DNA of 64,000 nt from Candidatus Micrarchaeota archaeon (GCA_027046625.1 JALTXX010000016.1:5512-69511); one strand, 5' to 3'. Shown: positions 394 through 54,498, counted from the stretch's first letter. The notes: generated by a model not told the origin, from the letters alone. Numbers and translations are program-made.

Positions 394-1353
394 CTACCAC
401 CATATTACGAGGGGTTGGTACTTCTCCATACCTAATAAATGTTTCACGAGCTTTAAAACCTCCAAGTGAATGAGTTTTCTGTAGCTTACGTTCTTCCTTA
501 GCTTTCTATGCCTAATTGTGCTTCTTAGTTTTTCCTCCCAATATCTCAAGAAGATAGCCTTCCCTTCATTGTTAAGTAGCACATTTCCTATATCCCCCTC
601 AAAGTGATGCTCTTTTAGTATCTTTTTATTTACCAAGTACAAAATTAGCCTATCCACTATAAACGGTTTAAATATCTCAGCAATGTCCAACGCCAAGCTA
701 AACCGCCTTTCATAAGGTTCGTGAAGGTACGAAATGCCGGGGTGAAGGGGAGTTCTTCTGATTTGGTTTAGAACCTCTGAATAGAGAAGGGAATACCCGA
801 AGCTTAATAATGCATTCCCCATATTAGACGGGGGTCTTCTGCTTCTTTCTCTTATGCGAAACTGTTCAGGTAATATGGAGTCCAAGAGAGAATAATATTT
901 TCTCTTGTATTCCCCCTCGAACCCCATAAGCTCCCTTACATTATCTATACCTTCTATTCTACCAAGATCAGGTTCAAACTCTATATTGTATTGTGAGAGT
1001 ACCCTTTTCACGTTTAGTAAGGCGCCTTCAACGAATCTTTTAGCGAGATACAATCTTTTTTCTCTGTTAATAAAATGCTCCGATTGTCTTATTACGAGAT
1101 CTCCGGACACTCTCTTCTCTCTTGGTAGAAAAGATCCTTCGTAGTTTCCATACATATCAAAGAAGTGTACTTCGATCCCTTTATTTCCCAATAGCAGCAG
1201 TATCTGGGACGATATGGATACTGGGGCTAGTAGGTAAATGCTTTCAATCCTCTCTATAGGAAGAGCACGTTTGTTTCCATCTTTGTCTATAAAGTAAAGG
1301 GTGTGGTGTTTGCGTACAATCTTTCCGGGCTTGGCTATGTAGAGGTTTGGCAT
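394..1353 (-). CDS. cas1: CRISPR-associated integrase Cas1
   Basis: 319 aa; Cas1-like sequence and size; 1-nt gap to cas2, 4-nt gap to cas4. Confidence 0.88.
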   Translation of the reverse strand: MPNLYIAKPGKIVRKHHTLYFIDKDGNKRALPIERIESIYLLAPVSISSQILLLLGNKGIEVHFFDMYGNYEGSFLPREKRVSGDLVIRQSEHFINREKRLYLAKRFVEGALLNVKRVLSQYNIEFEPDLGRIEGIDNVRELMGFEGEYKRKYYSLLDSILPEQFRIRERSRRPPSNMGNALLSFGYSLLYSEVLNQIRRTPLHPGISYLHEPYERRFSLALDIAEIFKPFIVDRLILYLVNKKILKEHHFEGDIGNVLLNNEGKAIFLRYWEEKLRSTIRHRKLRKNVSYRKLIHLEVLKLVKHLLGMEKYQPLVIWW

Positions 1354-1357
1354 ATTG

Positions 1358-1849
1358 TCACCCGAAGCACAGTTCTCTGTAAGCGCACTTTCTGCAATAA
1401 GGCTTCTTAATGGGTTTTGGAGGCTTGTCCTGTGAAAGTATTTTTCTTATATCCTGTAAGATCTGCTGAATGTGTTCAGTATCAGATACCTTTACAACTT
1501 TCTTTGTTGAGGGATAGTGTATGTAACCAATAGTGTCAATGCCCTTGGAGCGTAGCACATAAAGGTAGTACTTTACCTGTGCTATATCCGCCTCCTCTAA
1601 TGCATCCGATTTCTTGGTTTCATGTACTTCTAGTATACCACCTTTTCTTACAAAATCCACCTTTATCCTATCTATTAACAGTTCCTTCTCCTCACCCTTA
1701 TATCTAATCTCATGAAGTATTCTTCCCATCCTTACAAGCTCTGACTCCTCTTCCATGGTTATGCCGCGCGAGAACAACCATAGTTTTGTGGGGCACACAA
1801 CATAATAGTGTACCATCATCCCTGTTATGAGATCTTTATCAGTTAGCAT
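1358..1849 (-). CDS. cas4: CRISPR-associated exonuclease Cas4 (RecB-like nuclease with Fe-S cysteines)
   Basis: 163 aa; N-terminal CPTKLW and C-terminal CRKCAYRELC cysteine cluster typical of Cas4. Confidence 0.8.
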   Translation of the reverse strand: MLTDKDLITGMMVHYYVVCPTKLWLFSRGITMEEESELVRMGRILHEIRYKGEEKELLIDRIKVDFVRKGGILEVHETKKSDALEEADIAQVKYYLYVLRSKGIDTIGYIHYPSTKKVVKVSDTEHIQQILQDIRKILSQDKPPKPIKKPYCRKCAYRELCFG

Positions 1850-42509: not shown

Positions 42510-43335
42510 AGTATAGCGGGATACCCTCTTCACTTCCATATACTGTGGTGCTTGATTTTGTAGAACACTCCCCAGATCTTACCTCTACTGTGATCTCCAC
42601 AGGGAAGGATTCCACCCTTGATATTATTTCAAACAGTTTGGAATCCTTGGTGTATCGCACCTCCACGTTGTTACCATTTAGTGTAGCCACAACGTTGGAG
42701 GGGACGACCCTTTTACCATCTAGGAGCACCTCAAAGGTGTGTATTATGTATGTATCTCCTCCTTCCCTTAGCTGCTTGGTGGAAAGGTGGTTGATCTCCA
42801 GATTGCAGGATGAGAGTTTTACTATGGGAGAAGAGAGGGATGGGGAGCCCCTTCTTACCCTATAGCTGAGATAACCTCTCCCGTCCTTTACAGTAACAAA
42901 CCATGCAACGGTAGGATCAAACTCCAATACCATTTTATCCTCCGAGAGTATCTCGTCCGCATCCTCTACCATCTCCTTGGGAAACTCCTCTATCACAAGG
43001 TAATTTCCATCCTCCCCCTCTATAGTAATGGATACGCTTTTTCCATTGATTGTCTTTGACCAGTTATTCCCCTTGATGACATCGTAATCTACTGTTACAA
43101 GCTTGTTATCCAGGGAAGTAAACACAACCCTAAGCTTATCTCCTGCATCAATATCTGCACAACACACATACTTCCCATTTTTGTATTCACAGGTTGCCAG
43201 TGCGGTGCTATCATCTGACATGAAAGTGGCGTAATTCTTTACATTTGGGAGTCTATCTACGCAGATTGTGTTTGCGAATGATGTGGTAGACAGTACGAGC
43301 AGGAACACCAGTGGATAAAGCAATGGACGCCACAT
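42445..43335 (-). CDS. hypothetical secreted protein with C-terminal TM anchor
   Basis: start trimmed to MWRPLLYPLVFLLVLSTTSFA signal peptide (ORF track starts 43440); C-terminal hydrophobic segment. Confidence 0.4.
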   Translation of the reverse strand: MWRPLLYPLVFLLVLSTTSFANTICVDRLPNVKNYATFMSDDSTALATCEYKNGKYVCCADIDAGDKLRVVFTSLDNKLVTVDYDVIKGNNWSKTINGKSVSITIEGEDGNYLVIEEFPKEMVEDADEILSEDKMVLEFDPTVAWFVTVKDGRGYLSYRVRRGSPSLSSPIVKLSSCNLEINHLSTKQLREGGDTYIIHTFEVLLDGKRVVPSNVVATLNGNNVEVRYTKDSKLFEIISRVESFPVEITVEVRSGECSTKSSTTVYGSEEGIPLYFIVLLVGGVIVLGWLYLRQAR

Positions 43336-48133: not shown

Positions 48134-50473
48134 ATGCATCACTTTTTTAACCCACCCATCCCTATTACATTCATGTCCTATTCCATTATTTCACCCCTCC
48201 TCATTATCCTCATCGTAGTAGCCTCCTCCCTCTTCCTCTACAACACCGTCATCTCCTCTCTCCAACCCATCCAGTCCACTCCTTCCTTCGTTCCACTAAT
48301 CATCGAAGAATACAAACAGGAGGGCAACCTTCTCACCCTCTACATCAGAAACCCCTCAAACACCTCAGCCTCCCTCCCCTACATCCTCGTCAAAACAGAA
48401 GAAGGGATAACAAAGATTGACCTCAACGCCACCATCCCCCCAAACTCCTCCCAGCCCATCACGGTAGAGCTCCCCTCCACTACATCCCAAGAGATAGAGG
48501 TATCCCTTGGAGGAAGCACCTCCTACCAGGTCCAGATAGAGCCTACAACTTCACTGTCAGCTCTATTCTGCCCTATCCTACCTCCAGACTGCACAGACCC
48601 CAACTCTCCCTGTGCAGGCACCGGCTGTTTAGCCTCGTATCCAAAGATCTTAGGAACTTATACATTTCCTACTAATGTTGCGCACGATATGGCTCTTCAT
48701 CCAGAAAGAAACCTGGCCTTCGTAGTCAACGGATATTCAGGCCTCCTCACCATCAACTACACAAATCCTTCCTCCCCAACATTAGAAGGAAACTATGACA
48801 CCCCAGGCTATGCCCAGAGTGTAGCCCTTGATACCCAGAAGAACTTGGCCTTTGTAGCAGATAGATCATCAGGCCTCCTCATAATAAATTACGCTATTCC
48901 ATCTTCTCTTACCTTAGAAGGTAATTACAATACTTCTGGCGACGCTCTAGGAGTAGCCCTCCTCCCAGAAAAGAACCTCGCCTTCGTAGCCGACGGACTT
49001 TCAGGCCTCCTCATCATAAATTATACCAACCCCGCTAACCCTGTATTAGAAGGCAACTACAACACTCCAGGAACAGCTATCTCTGTGGCTCTCGATCCCG
49101 AAAAAAACCTTGCCTTTGTAATCGATGGCAATTTACAAATTGTTGACTACACCAACCCATCATCTCCAACCCTGGTAGGAAGCTATGCCACCCCAGATAA
49201 TGCATTTTCGGCTGCCTTACTTCCCGGGATGAATATAGCTTTTGTGGTGGTTGGTTACTCCGGTATTCTTATTATCGATTACACAGACCCCACAAACCCC
49301 ACTTTAATTTCTGAGCATAACACTTTAAGCCCAGCGATTGATGTGGTTCTATCTCCAGAGAGTAACACCGCGTTTGTAGGCACCTACGACTCTGTCATTG
49401 TTATAGATTATACAGATCCGGCAAATCCTGTAGTAGAGAAGAATTTCTTTATTAGTATAAATTACTCCATAGCCTTTTCTTCAGACAGGAACCTTTTATT
49501 TACGGGCTCATTCCATCAGATTAACATCATTGATTACTCGCAGCCTGACACTGCCCCATCGCTCCTTACTAACTACCCTATAAGCATAATAACAAGGGGT
49601 ACGGCAGTAGGAGTCATCCTCCTATCAGAGAAAAACCTTGCCTTTGTAGCCGACAGGGACTCAAACTATGTCCTCATCATAAACTACACCGATCCTACAA
49701 CCCCTATTTTAGAAGGCAACTACAACACTCCAGGAACAGCTATCTCTGTGGCTCTCGATCCCGAAAAAAACCTCGCCTTTGTAATCGATGGCAATTTACA
49801 AATTGTTGACTACACCAACCCATCATCTCCAACCCTGGTAGGAAGCTATGCCACCCCAGGATATGCCCAGAGTGTAGCCCTTGATACCCAGAAGAACTTG
49901 GCCTTCGTGGCGGATAGTACCGCAGGTCTTCTAATAATCAGCTATACAGATCCTACCAGCCCTACTCTGGTAGGAAGCTATAGCGTACCATACTATGCTG
50001 CTGGTGTTGCTCTCCTCCCAGAAAAGAACTTGGCCTTCGTAGCCGACGGACCTTCAGGCCTCCTCATCATAAATTATACCAACCCCGCTAACCCTGTATT
50101 AGAAGGCAACTACAACACTCCAGGATATGCTGAAGACGTAGCCATAGATATAGAAAGAAATCTGGCCTTTGTAGCAGACAATGAAGCAGGTGTTCAAATA
50201 ATAGACTATACTATCTCCTCCTCCCCAGTAATAGCAGGATCCTACGACACCCCGGGCTACGTATTCAATGTAGCCCTCCTCCCAGAAAAGAACTTGGCCT
50301 TCGTAGCCGACGGACCTTCAGGCCTCCTCATCATCAACTACACTAACCCATCATCTCCAACCCTAGTAGCAAGATCGTATCCAGCGTCAACAGATGTAGC
50401 ATTGGATGGAAACCTGTTGTTTGTTGCTGGAGGAAACCTTTACGTTCTAAACATCTGCAACTGTTTGACTTAA
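48134..50473 (+). CDS. LVIVD-repeat beta-propeller surface protein with N-terminal signal anchor
   Basis: 779 aa; about 14 repeats of NLAFVAD-GxSGLLIINYTNPSSPTLxGxYxTPGxAxxVAL (LVIVD-type); start may be the internal Met at 48173. Confidence 0.7.
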   Translation: MHHFFNPPIPITFMSYSIISPLLIILIVVASSLFLYNTVISSLQPIQSTPSFVPLIIEEYKQEGNLLTLYIRNPSNTSASLPYILVKTEEGITKIDLNATIPPNSSQPITVELPSTTSQEIEVSLGGSTSYQVQIEPTTSLSALFCPILPPDCTDPNSPCAGTGCLASYPKILGTYTFPTNVAHDMALHPERNLAFVVNGYSGLLTINYTNPSSPTLEGNYDTPGYAQSVALDTQKNLAFVADRSSGLLIINYAIPSSLTLEGNYNTSGDALGVALLPEKNLAFVADGLSGLLIINYTNPANPVLEGNYNTPGTAISVALDPEKNLAFVIDGNLQIVDYTNPSSPTLVGSYATPDNAFSAALLPGMNIAFVVVGYSGILIIDYTDPTNPTLISEHNTLSPAIDVVLSPESNTAFVGTYDSVIVIDYTDPANPVVEKNFFISINYSIAFSSDRNLLFTGSFHQINIIDYSQPDTAPSLLTNYPISIITRGTAVGVILLSEKNLAFVADRDSNYVLIINYTDPTTPILEGNYNTPGTAISVALDPEKNLAFVIDGNLQIVDYTNPSSPTLVGSYATPGYAQSVALDTQKNLAFVADSTAGLLIISYTDPTSPTLVGSYSVPYYAAGVALLPEKNLAFVADGPSGLLIINYTNPANPVLEGNYNTPGYAEDVAIDIERNLAFVADNEAGVQIIDYTISSSPVIAGSYDTPGYVFNVALLPEKNLAFVADGPSGLLIINYTNPSSPTLVARSYPASTDVALDGNLLFVAGGNLYVLNICNCLT

Positions 50474-51420
50474 TGCTTTTTTAGCTTTAGGATGAGGGAG
50501 TGGTATTTGTATGTTTTGTCCAGCATTTCAAGGTATCTTTGAAGAATCGCTGCCATGGCCCTTCTCTTCGTGTTTTTGTCCCTTATCTTTTCAAGAGTGG
50601 ATTCCATAAACTCTGAGAGAGCTGGGGTGGAGAAAAGATGCCATAAAATCTCAACCTTATCCTCAATGTTTTTATCAGGCCTGAATCTGCCCTCAATAGT
50701 GTCTTTAACAGCCTTCTTCAGCTCCTCCTCTATGGATTCCCTGTATTTGTGTGGAGTGTAGGGAGCTTCCTCGCAGCGACCTTCCTCTCTGCACTCCTTT
50801 ATCATGCGTTCAAATTCCTCTCTCCCCTCAAAGAAGGCTAGAGGTTTGTTCTTTGGTGCTACCTGGGGCAGCATGTAGCCCTCCTCCTTAGTGAGGGGCA
50901 TGTAATTCCACACCACCTCTATGGGGGTGTTGTACTTCTCTTCTATTTCTCTGACGATGCGGGCCACCTTTTCAGAATCCTTTAGGTTGTCCACCACAAT
51001 GAGCAGATCAAGATCATCTACCATGCCTATATCAGGAACGTCTCTCATTTTCACGGGAACCCCATACATATTCATGGTAAGGGTACCCCCTCTAACTGCA
51101 AATACCTTTAGATTCTTTCCCAACGCCTTTTTTACTTTGTTGTAAACCTCTATGGCAGTTTTTAGATGTTTCTTGTAAAGATCTGCGTACACGGTAGCCC
51201 CTTCCTTTACAATATCCCCTTTCAGATTCTTCATGACGGCGTCTTTCTTTGCAGCCGTTCTAATGGGGTATCCCTTCCTGAGCTCCTGCTCTCCTTTCTT
51301 ATTTATGTAGTAATATCCATGACCTATATTTTCTAGTTCTTTCCAGAATTCCTCAAATATGAAGGGTTTACCTCTTTCTCTCAATCTTTTGGCAGCCTTC
51401 TCCCACGGATGTATCTCCAT
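50470..51420 (-). CDS. hypothetical protein, possibly a divergent Pol-beta-superfamily nucleotidyltransferase
   Basis: 316 aa; weak GG ... DDLDLLIVVD pattern resembling NTase G[GS] ... DhD; otherwise unrecognised. Confidence 0.35.
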   Translation of the reverse strand: MEIHPWEKAAKRLRERGKPFIFEEFWKELENIGHGYYYINKKGEQELRKGYPIRTAAKKDAVMKNLKGDIVKEGATVYADLYKKHLKTAIEVYNKVKKALGKNLKVFAVRGGTLTMNMYGVPVKMRDVPDIGMVDDLDLLIVVDNLKDSEKVARIVREIEEKYNTPIEVVWNYMPLTKEEGYMLPQVAPKNKPLAFFEGREEFERMIKECREEGRCEEAPYTPHKYRESIEEELKKAVKDTIEGRFRPDKNIEDKVEILWHLFSTPALSEFMESTLEKIRDKNTKRRAMAAILQRYLEMLDKTYKYHSLILKLKKH

Positions 51421-51469
51421 GTTTCTACAATGTCATGGATCTTTAAATGCTCTTGCCATAACTTTCTTT

Positions 51470-51553
51470 GCCGGGGTGGCCGAGCGGTCCAAGGCGCCGG
51501 ACTCGAGATCCGGTGGGATCACTCCCGCGCGGGTTCAAATCCCGCCCCCGGCG
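51470..51553 (+). tRNA. tRNA-Ser(CGA)
   Basis: acceptor GCCGGGG/CCCCGGC, long variable arm, T-loop GGTTCAAATCC, anticodon loop CTCGAGA. Confidence 0.8.
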
Positions 51554-51565
51554 CTGTTAAGCTTC

Positions 51566-51640
51566 CACAGTATCACATACTCTTATCCCCTTCCCTATAA
51601 GACAGATCTTCATCTCCAACGCTTCGCTCTTTGATTTTTT
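51566..51640 (-). pseudogene. relic 3-prime fragment of a third C-type-lectin pilin-like paralog (encodes ...LEMKICLIGKGIRVCDT)
   Basis: 36-nt imperfect direct repeat (3 mismatches) of the 3-prime end of the 51891 gene; hand translation matches the conserved C-terminus KICLIGEGVNVCDT of the paralogs; frame broken upstream. Confidence 0.4.
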
Positions 51641-51890
51641 CCCACTTCAGGGTATTTACTCTACCAGATAGGACCTCTCTTAGGCGCTCCTCGAGTTCTT
51701 TCCCACGGGTTTCTTCCTCTTTCTCAAATAGCAGGTCTACAAAAGTGTTGAATATTTCTTCCAAGTTAGTAATTCGTGTCTCCAGTTACTCGATCCTCTT
51801 CTCTAACGTGGTAGCCTTCTCCATGTTAAGAACTTACCCTATTCTACATTTAAACCTCTTCTATCACAGCCGAAATCTTGGTGGAGAATG

Positions 51891-52757
51891 TCAAGTGGCA
51901 GTAGTATCACAAACTCTTAGCCCCTTCCCTACAAGACACACCCTAACATCAATGAACTGAAAACCTGTTTTGGAGGGAATCGCCTGAAGTGTACAACTTG
52001 CACTCCCGCCTGGGGAAACAGGAAGGATAGTATCGCATTTTACAACCGGTATGTAGAGGGACCGTACAGTACCTCCTATGTTTACATCAACCCTGATTGG
52101 TTCTCCAATCCTCTTTGAGGCAACTGTATAACCAGATAATGTCTCTATCCTAAGCGTTAAACTTCCAAGGATCAAATTCCTTGTAGAAGAATGATTAGAC
52201 ACAGTAAACCCAATTCCGATCTTCTCACATATGAAGGGAAGAGGTACGGACCCATTTCTATCATCCCATCCCGTGGATGTTATGACGGCAACATCCTCCC
52301 CGTTAGCATCATCTGGCTTGCCACCCATCCAAAAATCACCCACTATAGGATCTCCCGTAATGTACTTCCACCCACCATCTGGCTCTGAAGATTCAGGGGA
52401 TTGGTACACCCCTATGTATGCTGCACTCCACCCCTTAGAGCTAACAATATTTTTCAGCACATTGTTTTGACCATCCGTTCTGGGAGTGGCAAGAAACATA
52501 CCCCTCTCTTTACAGTAATTAAATGCATCTACCCAGTTCATGGGGGTAGAAACAGGCAGGTAATAGTGCAAATAATAGCTAGCAATTCCTGGTGGACCTA
52601 CCTCTTTATAGGCTTCAAGCGACACCCCTATGGGAGAGGTATCCTCAGCTGTAGTCTGCTCAGAAAGTTTTGCCACACCCATGTATATGATTATCCCAAG
52701 TGCCAGTACTGTAGCTATGAGGAGGAGTGTTGCCACAATGGGTGAGATGCCTCTCAT
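51891..52757 (-). CDS. class III (type IV pilin-like) signal peptide protein with C-type lectin domain, paralog 1
   Basis: start trimmed to MRGISPIVATLLLIATVLALG; CTLD hallmarks NWVDAFNYC ... GWSAAYIGVYQ ... GGWKYITGD ... WMGGKPDD ... EDVAVI ... WDDRNG ... LPFICEK; C-terminal Cys-containing beta domain. Confidence 0.62.
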   Translation of the reverse strand: MRGISPIVATLLLIATVLALGIIIYMGVAKLSEQTTAEDTSPIGVSLEAYKEVGPPGIASYYLHYYLPVSTPMNWVDAFNYCKERGMFLATPRTDGQNNVLKNIVSSKGWSAAYIGVYQSPESSEPDGGWKYITGDPIVGDFWMGGKPDDANGEDVAVITSTGWDDRNGSVPLPFICEKIGIGFTVSNHSSTRNLILGSLTLRIETLSGYTVASKRIGEPIRVDVNIGGTVRSLYIPVVKCDTILPVSPGGSASCTLQAIPSKTGFQFIDVRVCLVGKGLRVCDTTAT

Positions 52758-52840
52758 CCTAACGAAAAAAAAACGATGAATAAATACCTTTCGGCCAGAG
52801 GTCGTTATGTATAATAACCCCTTATATACATCCCCTCCCA
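52758..52840 (-). promoter_or_regulatory. conserved 5-prime/promoter element of the lectin-pilin paralogs (copy 1)
   Basis: about 50 nt nearly identical to 54438-54490, including a T9 run and TATTTATT box, directly upstream of the MRGISP start. Confidence 0.4.
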
Positions 52841-52849
52841 TTTAATAGC

Positions 52850-53173
52850 ATGGAACCCCTTTCCACCATTAAGCGAATAATAGAGGAGGAAGCCTCCCGC
52901 CTCAACATAAAAATAGAGAGGATTATCCTCTTTGGAAGCAGAGCAAAGGGAACAGAGAGAAAGGATAGTGACTATGACATTCTAGTAATTACTCAGCATC
53001 CTGTAAGCAGACACCTTATGTATAAATTCCACTCTAACATTAGAATAAGGTTGTACAAACTTCTGGGGAGAGAGGTGGATATTATCGTTGTAGATAGGGA
53101 CTGGTTTAAGCGGAGGAGTAGATTATGGGGAAGCGTGGAATACGCAGCGGCAAGGGAAGGAATGGTGGTGTGA
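52850..53173 (+). CDS. minimal nucleotidyltransferase (MNT) of a HEPN-MNT toxin-antitoxin pair
   Basis: 107 aa; LFGSRAKGTERKDSDYDILV NTase motif (GSxxxG ... DxD). Confidence 0.75.
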   Translation: MEPLSTIKRIIEEEASRLNIKIERIILFGSRAKGTERKDSDYDILVITQHPVSRHLMYKFHSNIRIRLYKLLGREVDIIVVDRDWFKRRSRLWGSVEYAAAREGMVV

Positions 53174-53553
53174 GTATTGTATGTGAGTGGTTGGAAAGAG
53201 CTAATAGAGACCTGAAAGCGTCTAAGTTACTCCTAGAGGAAGGATTATACGAGGAGTCAACCTTTCATTCCCAACAGGCTGTAGAAAAAGCCCTGAAGGC
53301 ACTCCTTTTGGCTGTAAGGATCTTACCGCCAAGGACCCATAGCATAGAGCGGTTGTTGAGTATGCTAGAGGAGAAGATTGATGTTTCTTGGGCGTATGAG
53401 ATGCACTTGCCAGCACTAACCTACTATGCCATAGAGGTGAGATACCCGTCCCCTCCTGTATCTGAGGAGGAGGCAATAGATATGCTAGATATAGCAAGAA
53501 AAGCGATTGAAAGGGTGAAACTAATCTTGAAAGAGAAGAAAATACAATGCTAG
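53170..53553 (+). CDS. HEPN-domain protein, partner of the MNT
   Basis: start placed at GTG overlapping the MNT stop (GTGA); R-x6-H HEPN-like motif (RILPPRTH); ORF track gives a longer form from 53125. Confidence 0.62.
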   Translation: MSIVCEWLERANRDLKASKLLLEEGLYEESTFHSQQAVEKALKALLLAVRILPPRTHSIERLLSMLEEKIDVSWAYEMHLPALTYYAIEVRYPSPPVSEEEAIDMLDIARKAIERVKLILKEKKIQC

Positions 53554-53555
53554 AT

Positions 53556-54437
53556 CTATACCTTCACCGTATCACACACATTTACCCCTTCTCCAATAAG
53601 GCAAATCTTCAACTTGGATACCTCATAATCTACCTCCTTTAGAGGAAACGCCCAGAGAGAGCACGAGGCACTTACATTGGGTGGCACATCCCATCTATCA
53701 CATTTTAGGCGGGGAACGCTAACCCCTCCTACTCTTGTATTATTTATGTCCACAGAAAACCAGCTGAGGGAGTCTGTCTTCACCGCTGCTAGCAGTCTAT
53801 TGTTTAGTGCGTCATACACATGAACACTTACATTGGTGAGATTCAGAATGCCTTCAGAGGATACATTGGTAACCGTGAATCCAATCATAATCTTTTCACA
53901 CACAAAGGGAAATAACTCCGCTCCGCTATAGTCATGAAGACCATCTGACCTTATAGCCGCCACATCTTCAGCTGTGTTATCATCTGGCTGCCCACTTGCC
54001 CAGAATCCTTCCCCTATCAATCCCATTGCATCCCCCGTAACATAGTACCATCCCTTGTCTGGCTCAGAAGACCCAGGACTCTGGAATACACCCACCCATG
54101 CGGCTGTCCACCCCTTGGCTGCAAGGATATGCTTTATCTTATCGAGCTGCAGAAGGGACTTTGGAGCTGCAAGAAACATCCCCCTCTCCTTACAATAGTT
54201 AAACGCTCCTATCCAGTTCATTCCCGTAGAAACAGGCACATAGTACCTGAAGTAGCCAATGGATGCCCCTCGTGGTGGATAATCTAGGTATGCCTCCATC
54301 ACAACAGAGTATATCTGCCCCTGCTGGCCAGAGGTACCCTCCACCATCTGAGAAACACCCATATAGAGCAATGCTCCAATAGCAACAACGATAGCAATCA
54401 ACAGCACCGTTGCCACGATGGGTGAGATACCTCTCAT
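53556..54437 (-). CDS. class III (type IV pilin-like) signal peptide protein with C-type lectin domain, paralog 2
   Basis: MRGISPIVATVLLIAIVVAIG; CTLD hallmarks NWIGAFNYC ... GWTAAWVGVFQ ... KGWYYVTGD ... WASGQPDD ... EDVAAI ... FPFVCEK with QPD motif. Confidence 0.65.
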   Translation of the reverse strand: MRGISPIVATVLLIAIVVAIGALLYMGVSQMVEGTSGQQGQIYSVVMEAYLDYPPRGASIGYFRYYVPVSTGMNWIGAFNYCKERGMFLAAPKSLLQLDKIKHILAAKGWTAAWVGVFQSPGSSEPDKGWYYVTGDAMGLIGEGFWASGQPDDNTAEDVAAIRSDGLHDYSGAELFPFVCEKIMIGFTVTNVSSEGILNLTNVSVHVYDALNNRLLAAVKTDSLSWFSVDINNTRVGGVSVPRLKCDRWDVPPNVSASCSLWAFPLKEVDYEVSKLKICLIGEGVNVCDTVKV

Positions 54438-54498
54438 CCTAACGAAAAAAAAACGATGAATAAATACCTTTCGGTTGGGAATTGTTATGTATAATTAT
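54438..54498 (-). promoter_or_regulatory. conserved 5-prime/promoter element of the lectin-pilin paralogs (copy 2)
   Basis: near-identical to 52758-52810; sits between the kaiC-like stop and the paralog 2 start. Confidence 0.4.

Follow-up and report, generated by a model that had tools for sequence, protein, structure and literature searches.

A truncated lectin-pilin paralog beside tRNA-Ser, probably a deletion scar fused to an antitoxin pseudogene, in a Candidatus Micrarchaeota archaeon

Truncated paralogs left by illegitimate recombination in tandem arrays are ordinary remnants in prokaryotic genomes, and they are the closest described counterpart of the element considered here: a short 3' piece of a lectin-pilin gene that lies against a tRNA-Ser gene in a 64,000-nucleotide (nt) stretch of Candidatus Micrarchaeota archaeon DNA (GCA_027046625.1 JALTXX010000016.1:5512-69511; the whole stretch is referred to below as the window). 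Like such remnants, this stub is a short terminal piece that keeps its original orientation and its position relative to the tRNA gene, lacks a promoter and a start codon, and is fused out of frame to a decaying neighbor. There is no fundamental difference between the two, and in this case both partners at the junction can be identified, namely the last codons of an antitoxin gene and the 18 codons at the end of a pilin gene. The stub is probably a non-functional deletion scar in a tandem lectin-pilin cluster, fused to an antitoxin pseudogene; the probability of this reading is put at roughly three in four.

Other described systems resemble parts of the locus. The frame fused to the stub is a small open reading frame (ORF) which, like type II toxin-antitoxin genes of the PF09720/TIGR02574 plus ParE/RelE kind, is homologous over its full length to antitoxins of 72 residues; unlike them, it has a nonsense codon at position 13 and lacks both its own stop codon and a toxin gene. 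The two intact lectin-pilin genes in the window, here called A and B, share their N-terminus with archaeal type IV pilin-like proteins (TIGR02537, UpsA-like N-terminus). They differ from these in that the globular part consists of a C-type lectin domain and a beta-sandwich, and the stub differs in having no pilin N-terminus at all. The stub also recalls the pilE/pilS system of Neisseria, as a promoterless 3' partial copy near a pilin gene in a family with conversion tracts, and archaeal tRNA-linked integrative elements of the SSV and pNOB8 types, as a direct repeat beside the 3' end of a tRNA gene.

Lectin-pilin stub and direct repeat

An earlier note on this DNA described a relic of a third lectin-pilin paralog, its 3' end, beside tRNA-Ser, and that description is borne out by C-terminal tblastn matches, by a mixture of residues found in different paralogs and by the occurrence of intact paralogs in the same position relative to tRNA genes elsewhere. 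The minus-strand translation across the first repeat copy ends in SEALEMKICLIGKGIRVCDTVEA and reaches a TAA stop codon at 51557-51559, separated by 2-3 nt from the convergent tRNA gene. The homologous part comprises the last 18 codons (51560-51613). Its motif, CLIGKGIRVCDTVEA followed directly by the stop, fits the family pattern C-L-x-G-x-G-x-x-V-C-D-T, then two to seven residues and a stop codon. It contains LEMKICLIGKGIRVCDT, already recognized as the conserved C-terminus of the paralogs, and reads on to a stop at the usual family position. This piece encodes the Cys-Cys beta-hairpin with which the proteins of the family end, and which is formed by the last strands of the C-terminal beta-sandwich in the AlphaFold model of gene A (residues 272-277 and 280-285).

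When 11 family proteins were compared with the whole window by tblastn, 10 matched 51563-51640, in each case with only the last 17-26 residues of the protein. The E values are 5e-5 to 4e-3 for nine members and 0.15 for P0010, and in the longer alignments there are almost no identities upstream of the last 18 codons. The class III signal peptide, lectin domain and beta-sandwich, which take up about 270 residues upstream of the motif in the family, are not present, and the stub is best described as a fragment rather than as a member gene of the lectin-pilin family. It is the only one of its kind, since tblastn detected no further partial pilin copies in the 64-kilobase (kb) window. Its features are mixed, and the stub derives from a distinct third paralog and is no simple copy of A or B: the tail TVEA is like those of gene B (TVKV) and P0004 (TVRYA), GKG is shared with gene A and P0002, and MK is shared with P0004.

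The pilin frame had been thought to be broken upstream at a T-run (51641-51646), leaving only the stub. This is rejected. No pilin similarity was found in any frame of 51641-51890 when tblastn was run with all 11 family proteins at a permissive word size, with E values up to 10 admitted; pilin homology ends at about 51613-51623, and the DNA upstream belongs to a ParE-type antitoxin pseudogene.

The direct repeat of 36 nt with three mismatches is confirmed (33 of 36 positions identical), and dinucleotide-preserving shuffles of the window yielded no matches to the 36-mer. A weaker third copy (72-76%), located by a repeat finder, is the 3' end of gene B (53565-53614). Alignment with the 3' ends of both paralogs, as had been proposed, supports the relationship with both, and at the protein level there is a match to the C-termini of 10 of the 11 family members. 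The two copies lie 334 nt apart, and the pseudogene is contained in the 334-nt segment that they enclose. The range originally given, 51566-51939, covers both copies and the intervening DNA, and the description was right, although small coordinate details were off; in particular, the repeat begins 14-15 nt past tRNA-Ser rather than 12 nt after it. It does not overlap the tRNA gene, which Rfam also matches (51470-51553, 60.7 bits); in a scan of 51000-53000, no other Rfam RNA family reached threshold. As read from the coding sequence, the repeat is a by-product of paralogy, in that the stub and gene A both encode the conserved C-terminal hairpin CLxGxGxxVCDT.

Table 1. Features of the stub locus, with tandem pilin pairs at this and related loci (window coordinates unless another locus is named)
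Feature	Coordinates	Strand	Evidence or remark
tRNA-Ser(CGA), class II	51470-51554	+	ARAGORN; convergent with pilin stub
Relic of third lectin-pilin paralog, 18 codons MKICLIGKGIRVCDTVEA plus TAA stop	51557-51613	-	translation, tblastn, codon alignment
Repeat copy 1, 36 nt, AGTATCACATACTCTTATCCCCTTCCCTATAAGACA	51569-51604		inside pilin stub
Repeat copy 2	51903-51938		3' end of intact gene A
Junction zone, antitoxin homology to pilin homology	51612-51623		hidden Markov model (HMM) and DNA alignment
ParE-type antitoxin pseudogene (Unstab_antitox/TIGR02574-like)	51612-51824	-	profile, phmmer
In-frame TAA at antitoxin codon 13	51786-51788	-	seen in two assemblies
Putative TATA-like TTTAAAT, about 27 nt upstream of antitoxin ATG	51848-51854	-	sequence only
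Gene A, intact lectin-pilin, 288 residues	51891-52757	-	Pfam, TIGR02537, family alignment, AlphaFold, Foldseek
Conserved 57-nt region upstream of gene A	52758-52814	-	
Nucleotidyltransferase (NTase; 52850-53173) and HEPN (53125-53553)	52850-53553	+	between B and A
Gene B, intact lectin-pilin paralog, 293 residues	53556-54437	-	
Tandem pair, window	HEPN/NTase 52850-53553		B-[HEPN/NTase]-A
Tandem pair, L005	HEPN/NTase 905-1595		P0002-[HEPN/NTase]-P0004
Tandem pair, L003	antitoxin-like gene/ParE 1041-1560		P0011-[antitoxin-like gene/ParE]-P0002-like (A-like) gene

Antitoxin pseudogene and junction

The frame that runs into the stub begins at an ATG (51822-51824) and continues through the stub in a frame other than that of the pilin, ending with a TGA at 51573-51575. 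Its minus-strand translation reads MEKATTLEKRIE, an in-frame stop, then LETRITNLEEIFNTFVDLLFEKEEETRGKELEERLREVLSGRVNTLKWEKIKERSVGDEDLSYREGDKSM and the final stop. An exhaustive phmmer search with this sequence gave one representative homologue, the 72-residue P0013 (E = 1e-7), and seven close relatives (67-83 residues) emerged from a further search; for several of them there are precomputed assignments to Pfam PF09720 (Unstab_antitox). A profile of the seven intact homologues (P0013-P0019) matches the window ORF at model positions 1-68 of 72 in a six-frame search (E = 5.6e-19), with the match running across the in-frame TAA, and the homology to PF09720/TIGR02574-like type II antitoxins covers the full length. 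Direct matches of the ORF to PF09720 and TIGR02574 are weak and below cutoff. The match to a 70-residue antitoxin-like gene beside P0011 is marginal (E = 0.079, 24% identity), and the identification is based on the closer family of 72-residue homologues, not on that gene.

The antitoxin is no longer an intact gene. A Glu conserved in the homologues is replaced by TAA at codon 13, presumably by a nonsense mutation from GAA to TAA. Its native stop codon has also gone: intact homologues end in EKELGD or EKELSD followed by a stop, whereas the window reads KERSVGD and then runs on for 12 codons (EDLSYREGDKSM) into the stub. A remnant search at the junction found no ParE similarity near 51400-51900, and there is no adjacent cognate toxin gene. 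In the case of the intact homologue P0018 (L007, L008), a ParE toxin gene lies 2 nt downstream; P0013, by contrast, stands alone and has no toxin gene (L009-L011). The TTTAAAT sequence upstream of the ATG may be the archaeal promoter of a leaderless transcript. Elsewhere in the window, a weak ParE-like tblastn match is found on the minus strand at 42755-42931 (E = 0.034 with the ParE of L007), and could represent another toxin gene.

At the junction itself, the antitoxin HMM alignment ends at KIKE, and the tail that follows, RSVGD, resembles the ELGD or ELSD of the intact homologues. The DNA alignment with the 3' end of P0004 begins at about AGATGAAG. Both homologies overlap in 4 nt, AGAT, which may be a breakpoint microhomology. 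In a second assembly (L001, from ENA, a metagenome sample) the sequence is identical across the whole junction. The earlier note had called for comparison of this junction in related strains; no genome with an intact pilin gene at tRNA-Ser(CGA) was obtained.

History of the locus and competing explanations

Other members of the family were located on contigs of the same metagenome and in NCBI assemblies, and they provide a model for the original arrangement. The stop codon of P0004 lies 5 nt from a convergent tRNA-Leu(CAG) in L005 (2556-2647), and that of P0003 lies 0 nt from a convergent tRNA-Leu(CAA) in L006 (7289-7375). The stub together with tRNA-Ser can be aligned by blastn with the 3' end of P0004 together with tRNA-Leu (152 nt, 74% identity). 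Toxin-antitoxin modules are present between the pilin genes in all three of the tandem pairs seen (Table 1), and the decayed antitoxin would be a fourth case. The order of gene A, antitoxin, stub and tRNA is therefore the layout expected of a third pilin-module-pilin unit once its toxin gene and the body of its final pilin gene had been lost.

Two side observations concern these related loci. For three different paralogs, the 3' end of a convergent class II tRNA gene lies 0-5 nt beyond the stop codon; the tRNA genes are Ser-CGA (window 51470-51559), Leu-CAG and Leu-CAA. This adjacency looks too frequent for chance, and it could result from block duplication of a pilin gene with its tRNA gene, from targeted insertion, or from the use of antisense tRNA as a 3' structure of the mRNA. 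In addition, the 70-residue antitoxin-like gene and its ParE partner are convergent, with an 11-nt overlap (L002 2832-3351; L003 1041-1560). The genes of type II toxin-antitoxin systems are normally co-directional, and the convergent geometry is unusual.

In the favored history, the ancestral order in the reading direction of the pilin genes would have been gene B, HEPN/NTase, gene A, an antitoxin gene (probably accompanied by a ParE toxin gene), a third pilin gene C and a convergent tRNA-Ser. A single illegitimate recombination event would have joined the last antitoxin codons to gene C at about codon 270, leaving 18 codons of the latter, and would have removed the antitoxin stop codon, the toxin gene if there was one, and about 270 codons of gene C. 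The antitoxin, no longer needed, would then have acquired its nonsense mutation, and would now be decaying. The event may have been a simple deletion. Alternatively, it may have been a replacement, in which a segment consisting of gene A plus the antitoxin displaced the body of a P0004-like gene; this variant is suggested because gene A resembles P0002 in sequence (86-88% DNA identity) but its upstream context, comprising the NTase gene and promoter, matches the upstream context of P0004 in a relative (77%). Both variants stand. In either case, the original proposal of past recombination or deletion within the gene family is supported, both by the antitoxin-pilin fusion and by two other loci at which an intact paralog lies in the same position against a class II tRNA gene.

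The stub may also have exchanged sequence with gene A. Within the 36-nt core, the 33 of 36 identities between them compare with 23-30 of 36 for all other pairs compared, including 29 of 36 for gene A and its closer relative P0002. The flanks of the core diverge sharply, with differences at 5 of 9 nt upstream and with the tails TVEA and TTAT downstream. It may be that the high identity reflects a short gene-conversion tract.

Several points weigh against the proposed deletion scar and its history. The ancestral state is deduced from paralogous loci beside tRNA-Leu, and no intact gene at the tRNA-Ser(CGA) locus was retrieved. The toxin gene may never have been present, since some intact antitoxin homologues are solo (P0013, L009-L011). 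In a related organism, the antitoxin/ParE module is upstream of the A-like gene, not downstream, and the antitoxin there is only a distant relative of the one in the window (24% identity). Finally, the excess represented by 33 of 36 identities is weak evidence, at about p = 0.01 by a hand estimate made before correction for multiple comparisons.

A different and rather unlikely explanation is that the small ORF is live and has adopted the stub as its 3' terminus. Renewed initiation downstream of the TAA, for example at TTG 51764, would yield a 63-residue orphan antitoxin-like regulator, the last 12 residues of which would be encoded out of frame by old pilin sequence. The 63-residue ORF (51573-51764) is indeed still open, with the putative TATA-like box upstream and the conserved C-terminal part of the antitoxin (ELEERLREVLSGRVNTLKWEKIKE) intact, and solo antitoxin homologues are known elsewhere. 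However, the nonsense codon removes 12 N-terminal residues that are conserved in all seven homologues, and no toxin partner is present. The sole other copy, in L001, is identical, and hence there is no independent sequence by which to gauge purifying selection.

It is also conceivable, if improbable, that the stub is the by-product of an organized recombination system that shuffles surface adhesins, with lectin-pilin genes as exchangeable cassettes. Such cassettes would be bounded by a near-invariant 5' handle, consisting of the 57-nt promoter and the signal peptide, and by a conserved 3' handle, the CLxGxGxxVCDT codons. The genes would be parked tail-to-tail against class II tRNA genes, the interleaved toxin-antitoxin modules would stabilize the array, and both entire genes and short tracts would be exchanged among paralogs and between co-occurring populations. 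The model fits because gene A, although P0002-like in sequence, occupies the slot held by P0004 in the relative, and because a 7-SNP conversion tract can be recognized in gene A. L001 and the window differ by seven single-nucleotide polymorphisms (SNPs) in 1589 nt, all of which fall within 91 nt of gene A (52404-52494), and at all seven sites L001 has the allele of the related population (the P0002 gene in L005 and L003). A cluster of this kind has the signature of a short recombination tract. As for the 5' end, the 57-nt region upstream of gene A has a counterpart upstream of gene B (54438-54494) and is common to every paralog examined, and the 5' end of gene B (54409-54494) is 100% identical over 86 nt to that of an A-like gene from another population (L003 1548-1633). 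This suggests that the promoter and the end encoding the signal peptide are under either strong constraint or homogenization.

The earlier note had further raised the possibility of tRNA-associated integration or excision, according to which the 36-nt repeats would be the attachment (att) sites of a mobile element targeting tRNA-Ser. tRNA genes are classic integration targets, the stub adjoins one, and three paralogs lie against class II tRNA genes; moreover, a neighboring gene of 316 residues (50470-51420), with no homologue but itself among 5.8 billion proteins, fits a variable region. However, the repeat lies outside tRNA-Ser and, unlike those of SSV- and pNOB8-type elements, includes no tRNA sequence. 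No second copy of the 38-nt 3' segment of tRNA-Ser occurs in the 64-kb window, even with up to three mismatches allowed. No integrase was detected among the Pfam-scanned ORFs or in the precomputed Pfam annotation of L001, in a search in which several flanking ORFs had no family match and 56-64 kb was partly covered, and the identifiable flanking genes are housekeeping genes (KH protein, topoisomerase VI, KaiC-like ATPase, ScpA/ScpB, RNase HII and Trm1). The repeat is in fact the coding end conserved in all paralogs, among them some at unlinked loci and some at loci without a tRNA gene. The two copies enclose just 334 nt with a pseudogene, which is again unlike the known elements, and the sequence flanking the core diverges as described above. 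With the repeat off the tRNA gene, the 3' part of that gene in single copy and no integrase among the ORFs checked, an integration or excision scar is very unlikely.

There is equally little to recommend the idea that the stub is a silent partial cassette, retained to donate sequence or to serve as a recombination handle in pilin variation, as pilS is for pilE in Neisseria, and it is given hardly any credence. Short-tract recombination has occurred in gene A, the core of the stub is more similar to gene A than is usual between paralogs, and promoters and 5' ends are nearly the same from one paralog to another, with identity reaching 100% over 86 nt for different paralogs in different populations. 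However, where a pilS-like system would have multiple promoterless partial copies across a variable region, the 64 kb contain a single 54-nt copy, which covers the invariant hairpin and no variable region, and has almost no diversity to donate. No recombination-initiating sequence is known here, the likeness to Neisseria is positional only, and deletion is the simpler history.

Chance similarity or an assembly artifact is scarcely credible, even though the source is metagenome-assembled and repeats can cause misjoins, because shuffled windows gave no matches, the similarity is to the correct end of 10 of the 11 family members, and the junction is identical in the independent assembly L001, which is seven SNPs apart elsewhere.

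The lectin-pilin family and its surroundings

Genes A and B, which are 48% identical, are intact members of a family in which a class III signal peptide is combined with a C-type lectin domain and a four-cysteine beta-sandwich. The true start of gene A is at MRGISP (52757), not at the ATG at 52841 suggested by the ORF list; the sequence of gene B is identical to that of P0006. Both N-termini read MRGISPIVATxLLIA and continue into a hydrophobic helix, and both contain a [KR]G-[AS] prepilin peptidase motif. TIGR02537 matches gene B with 28.5 bits (cutoff 20) and gene A with 17.6 bits, which is below the cutoff. Pfam Lectin_C (PF00059) is matched by both (44.3 bits for A and 29.6 bits for B, cutoff 22.6), and together with the predicted fold these scores above the gathering threshold show that both proteins carry a C-type lectin domain. 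In the AlphaFold model of gene A (mean predicted local distance difference test score 79), residues 6-32 form the N-terminal helix, and the domain at about 45-180 is matched by Foldseek to the carbohydrate-recognition domains of CL-K1 and DC-SIGN and to other C-type lectins, with E values from 6e-9 and target-normalized template modeling scores of 0.71-0.88. In the family alignment, KPDD or QPDD and WDD or HDY occur roughly where the EPN/QPD and WND motifs would be expected, and are candidate calcium- and carbohydrate-binding residues. The module between B and A is recognized by Pfam as NTP_transf_2 (1.2e-12) and HEPN (1e-30).

The family is very small. A database of 5.8 billion proteins yields just 11 clusters, every one of them from a small number of metagenomes or metagenome-assembled genomes, and the family was not found in GTDB representative genomes or in the scanned metagenome contigs of the Joint Genome Institute. 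The organism is similarly isolated. A scan with the KH-domain protein found no close relative of the lineage among 185,579 representative genomes, the best matches having no more than 48% identity. These best matches are labelled as Bathyarchaeia, Woesearchaeota or Nanobdellati metagenome-assembled genomes, and are too distant for synteny.

On the other side of tRNA-Ser, the 316-residue ORF mentioned above is encoded on the minus strand and has no Pfam or NCBIfam match. A G-x(n)-DxD stretch is visible by eye, and could indicate a putative nucleotidyltransferase fold. A further gene, on the plus strand (48134-50473), encodes a 779-residue LVIVD-repeat protein with a period of 132 nt; some of its units are near-identical, with 37 nt matching at 100% between 49146 and 49809.

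The stub and the fused antitoxin are most appropriately annotated as pseudogene remnants, and should not be taken to indicate a mobile element at tRNA-Ser. On its own, the stub is of minor importance and represents ordinary gene decay. It is useful as an indicator of turnover in a very rare archaeal pilin-like family with a C-type lectin head, in which arrays gain and lose copies. The context of the gene family, with its interleaved modules, its adjacency to class II tRNA genes and the short tracts exchanged between co-occurring populations, is a stronger lead than the stub.

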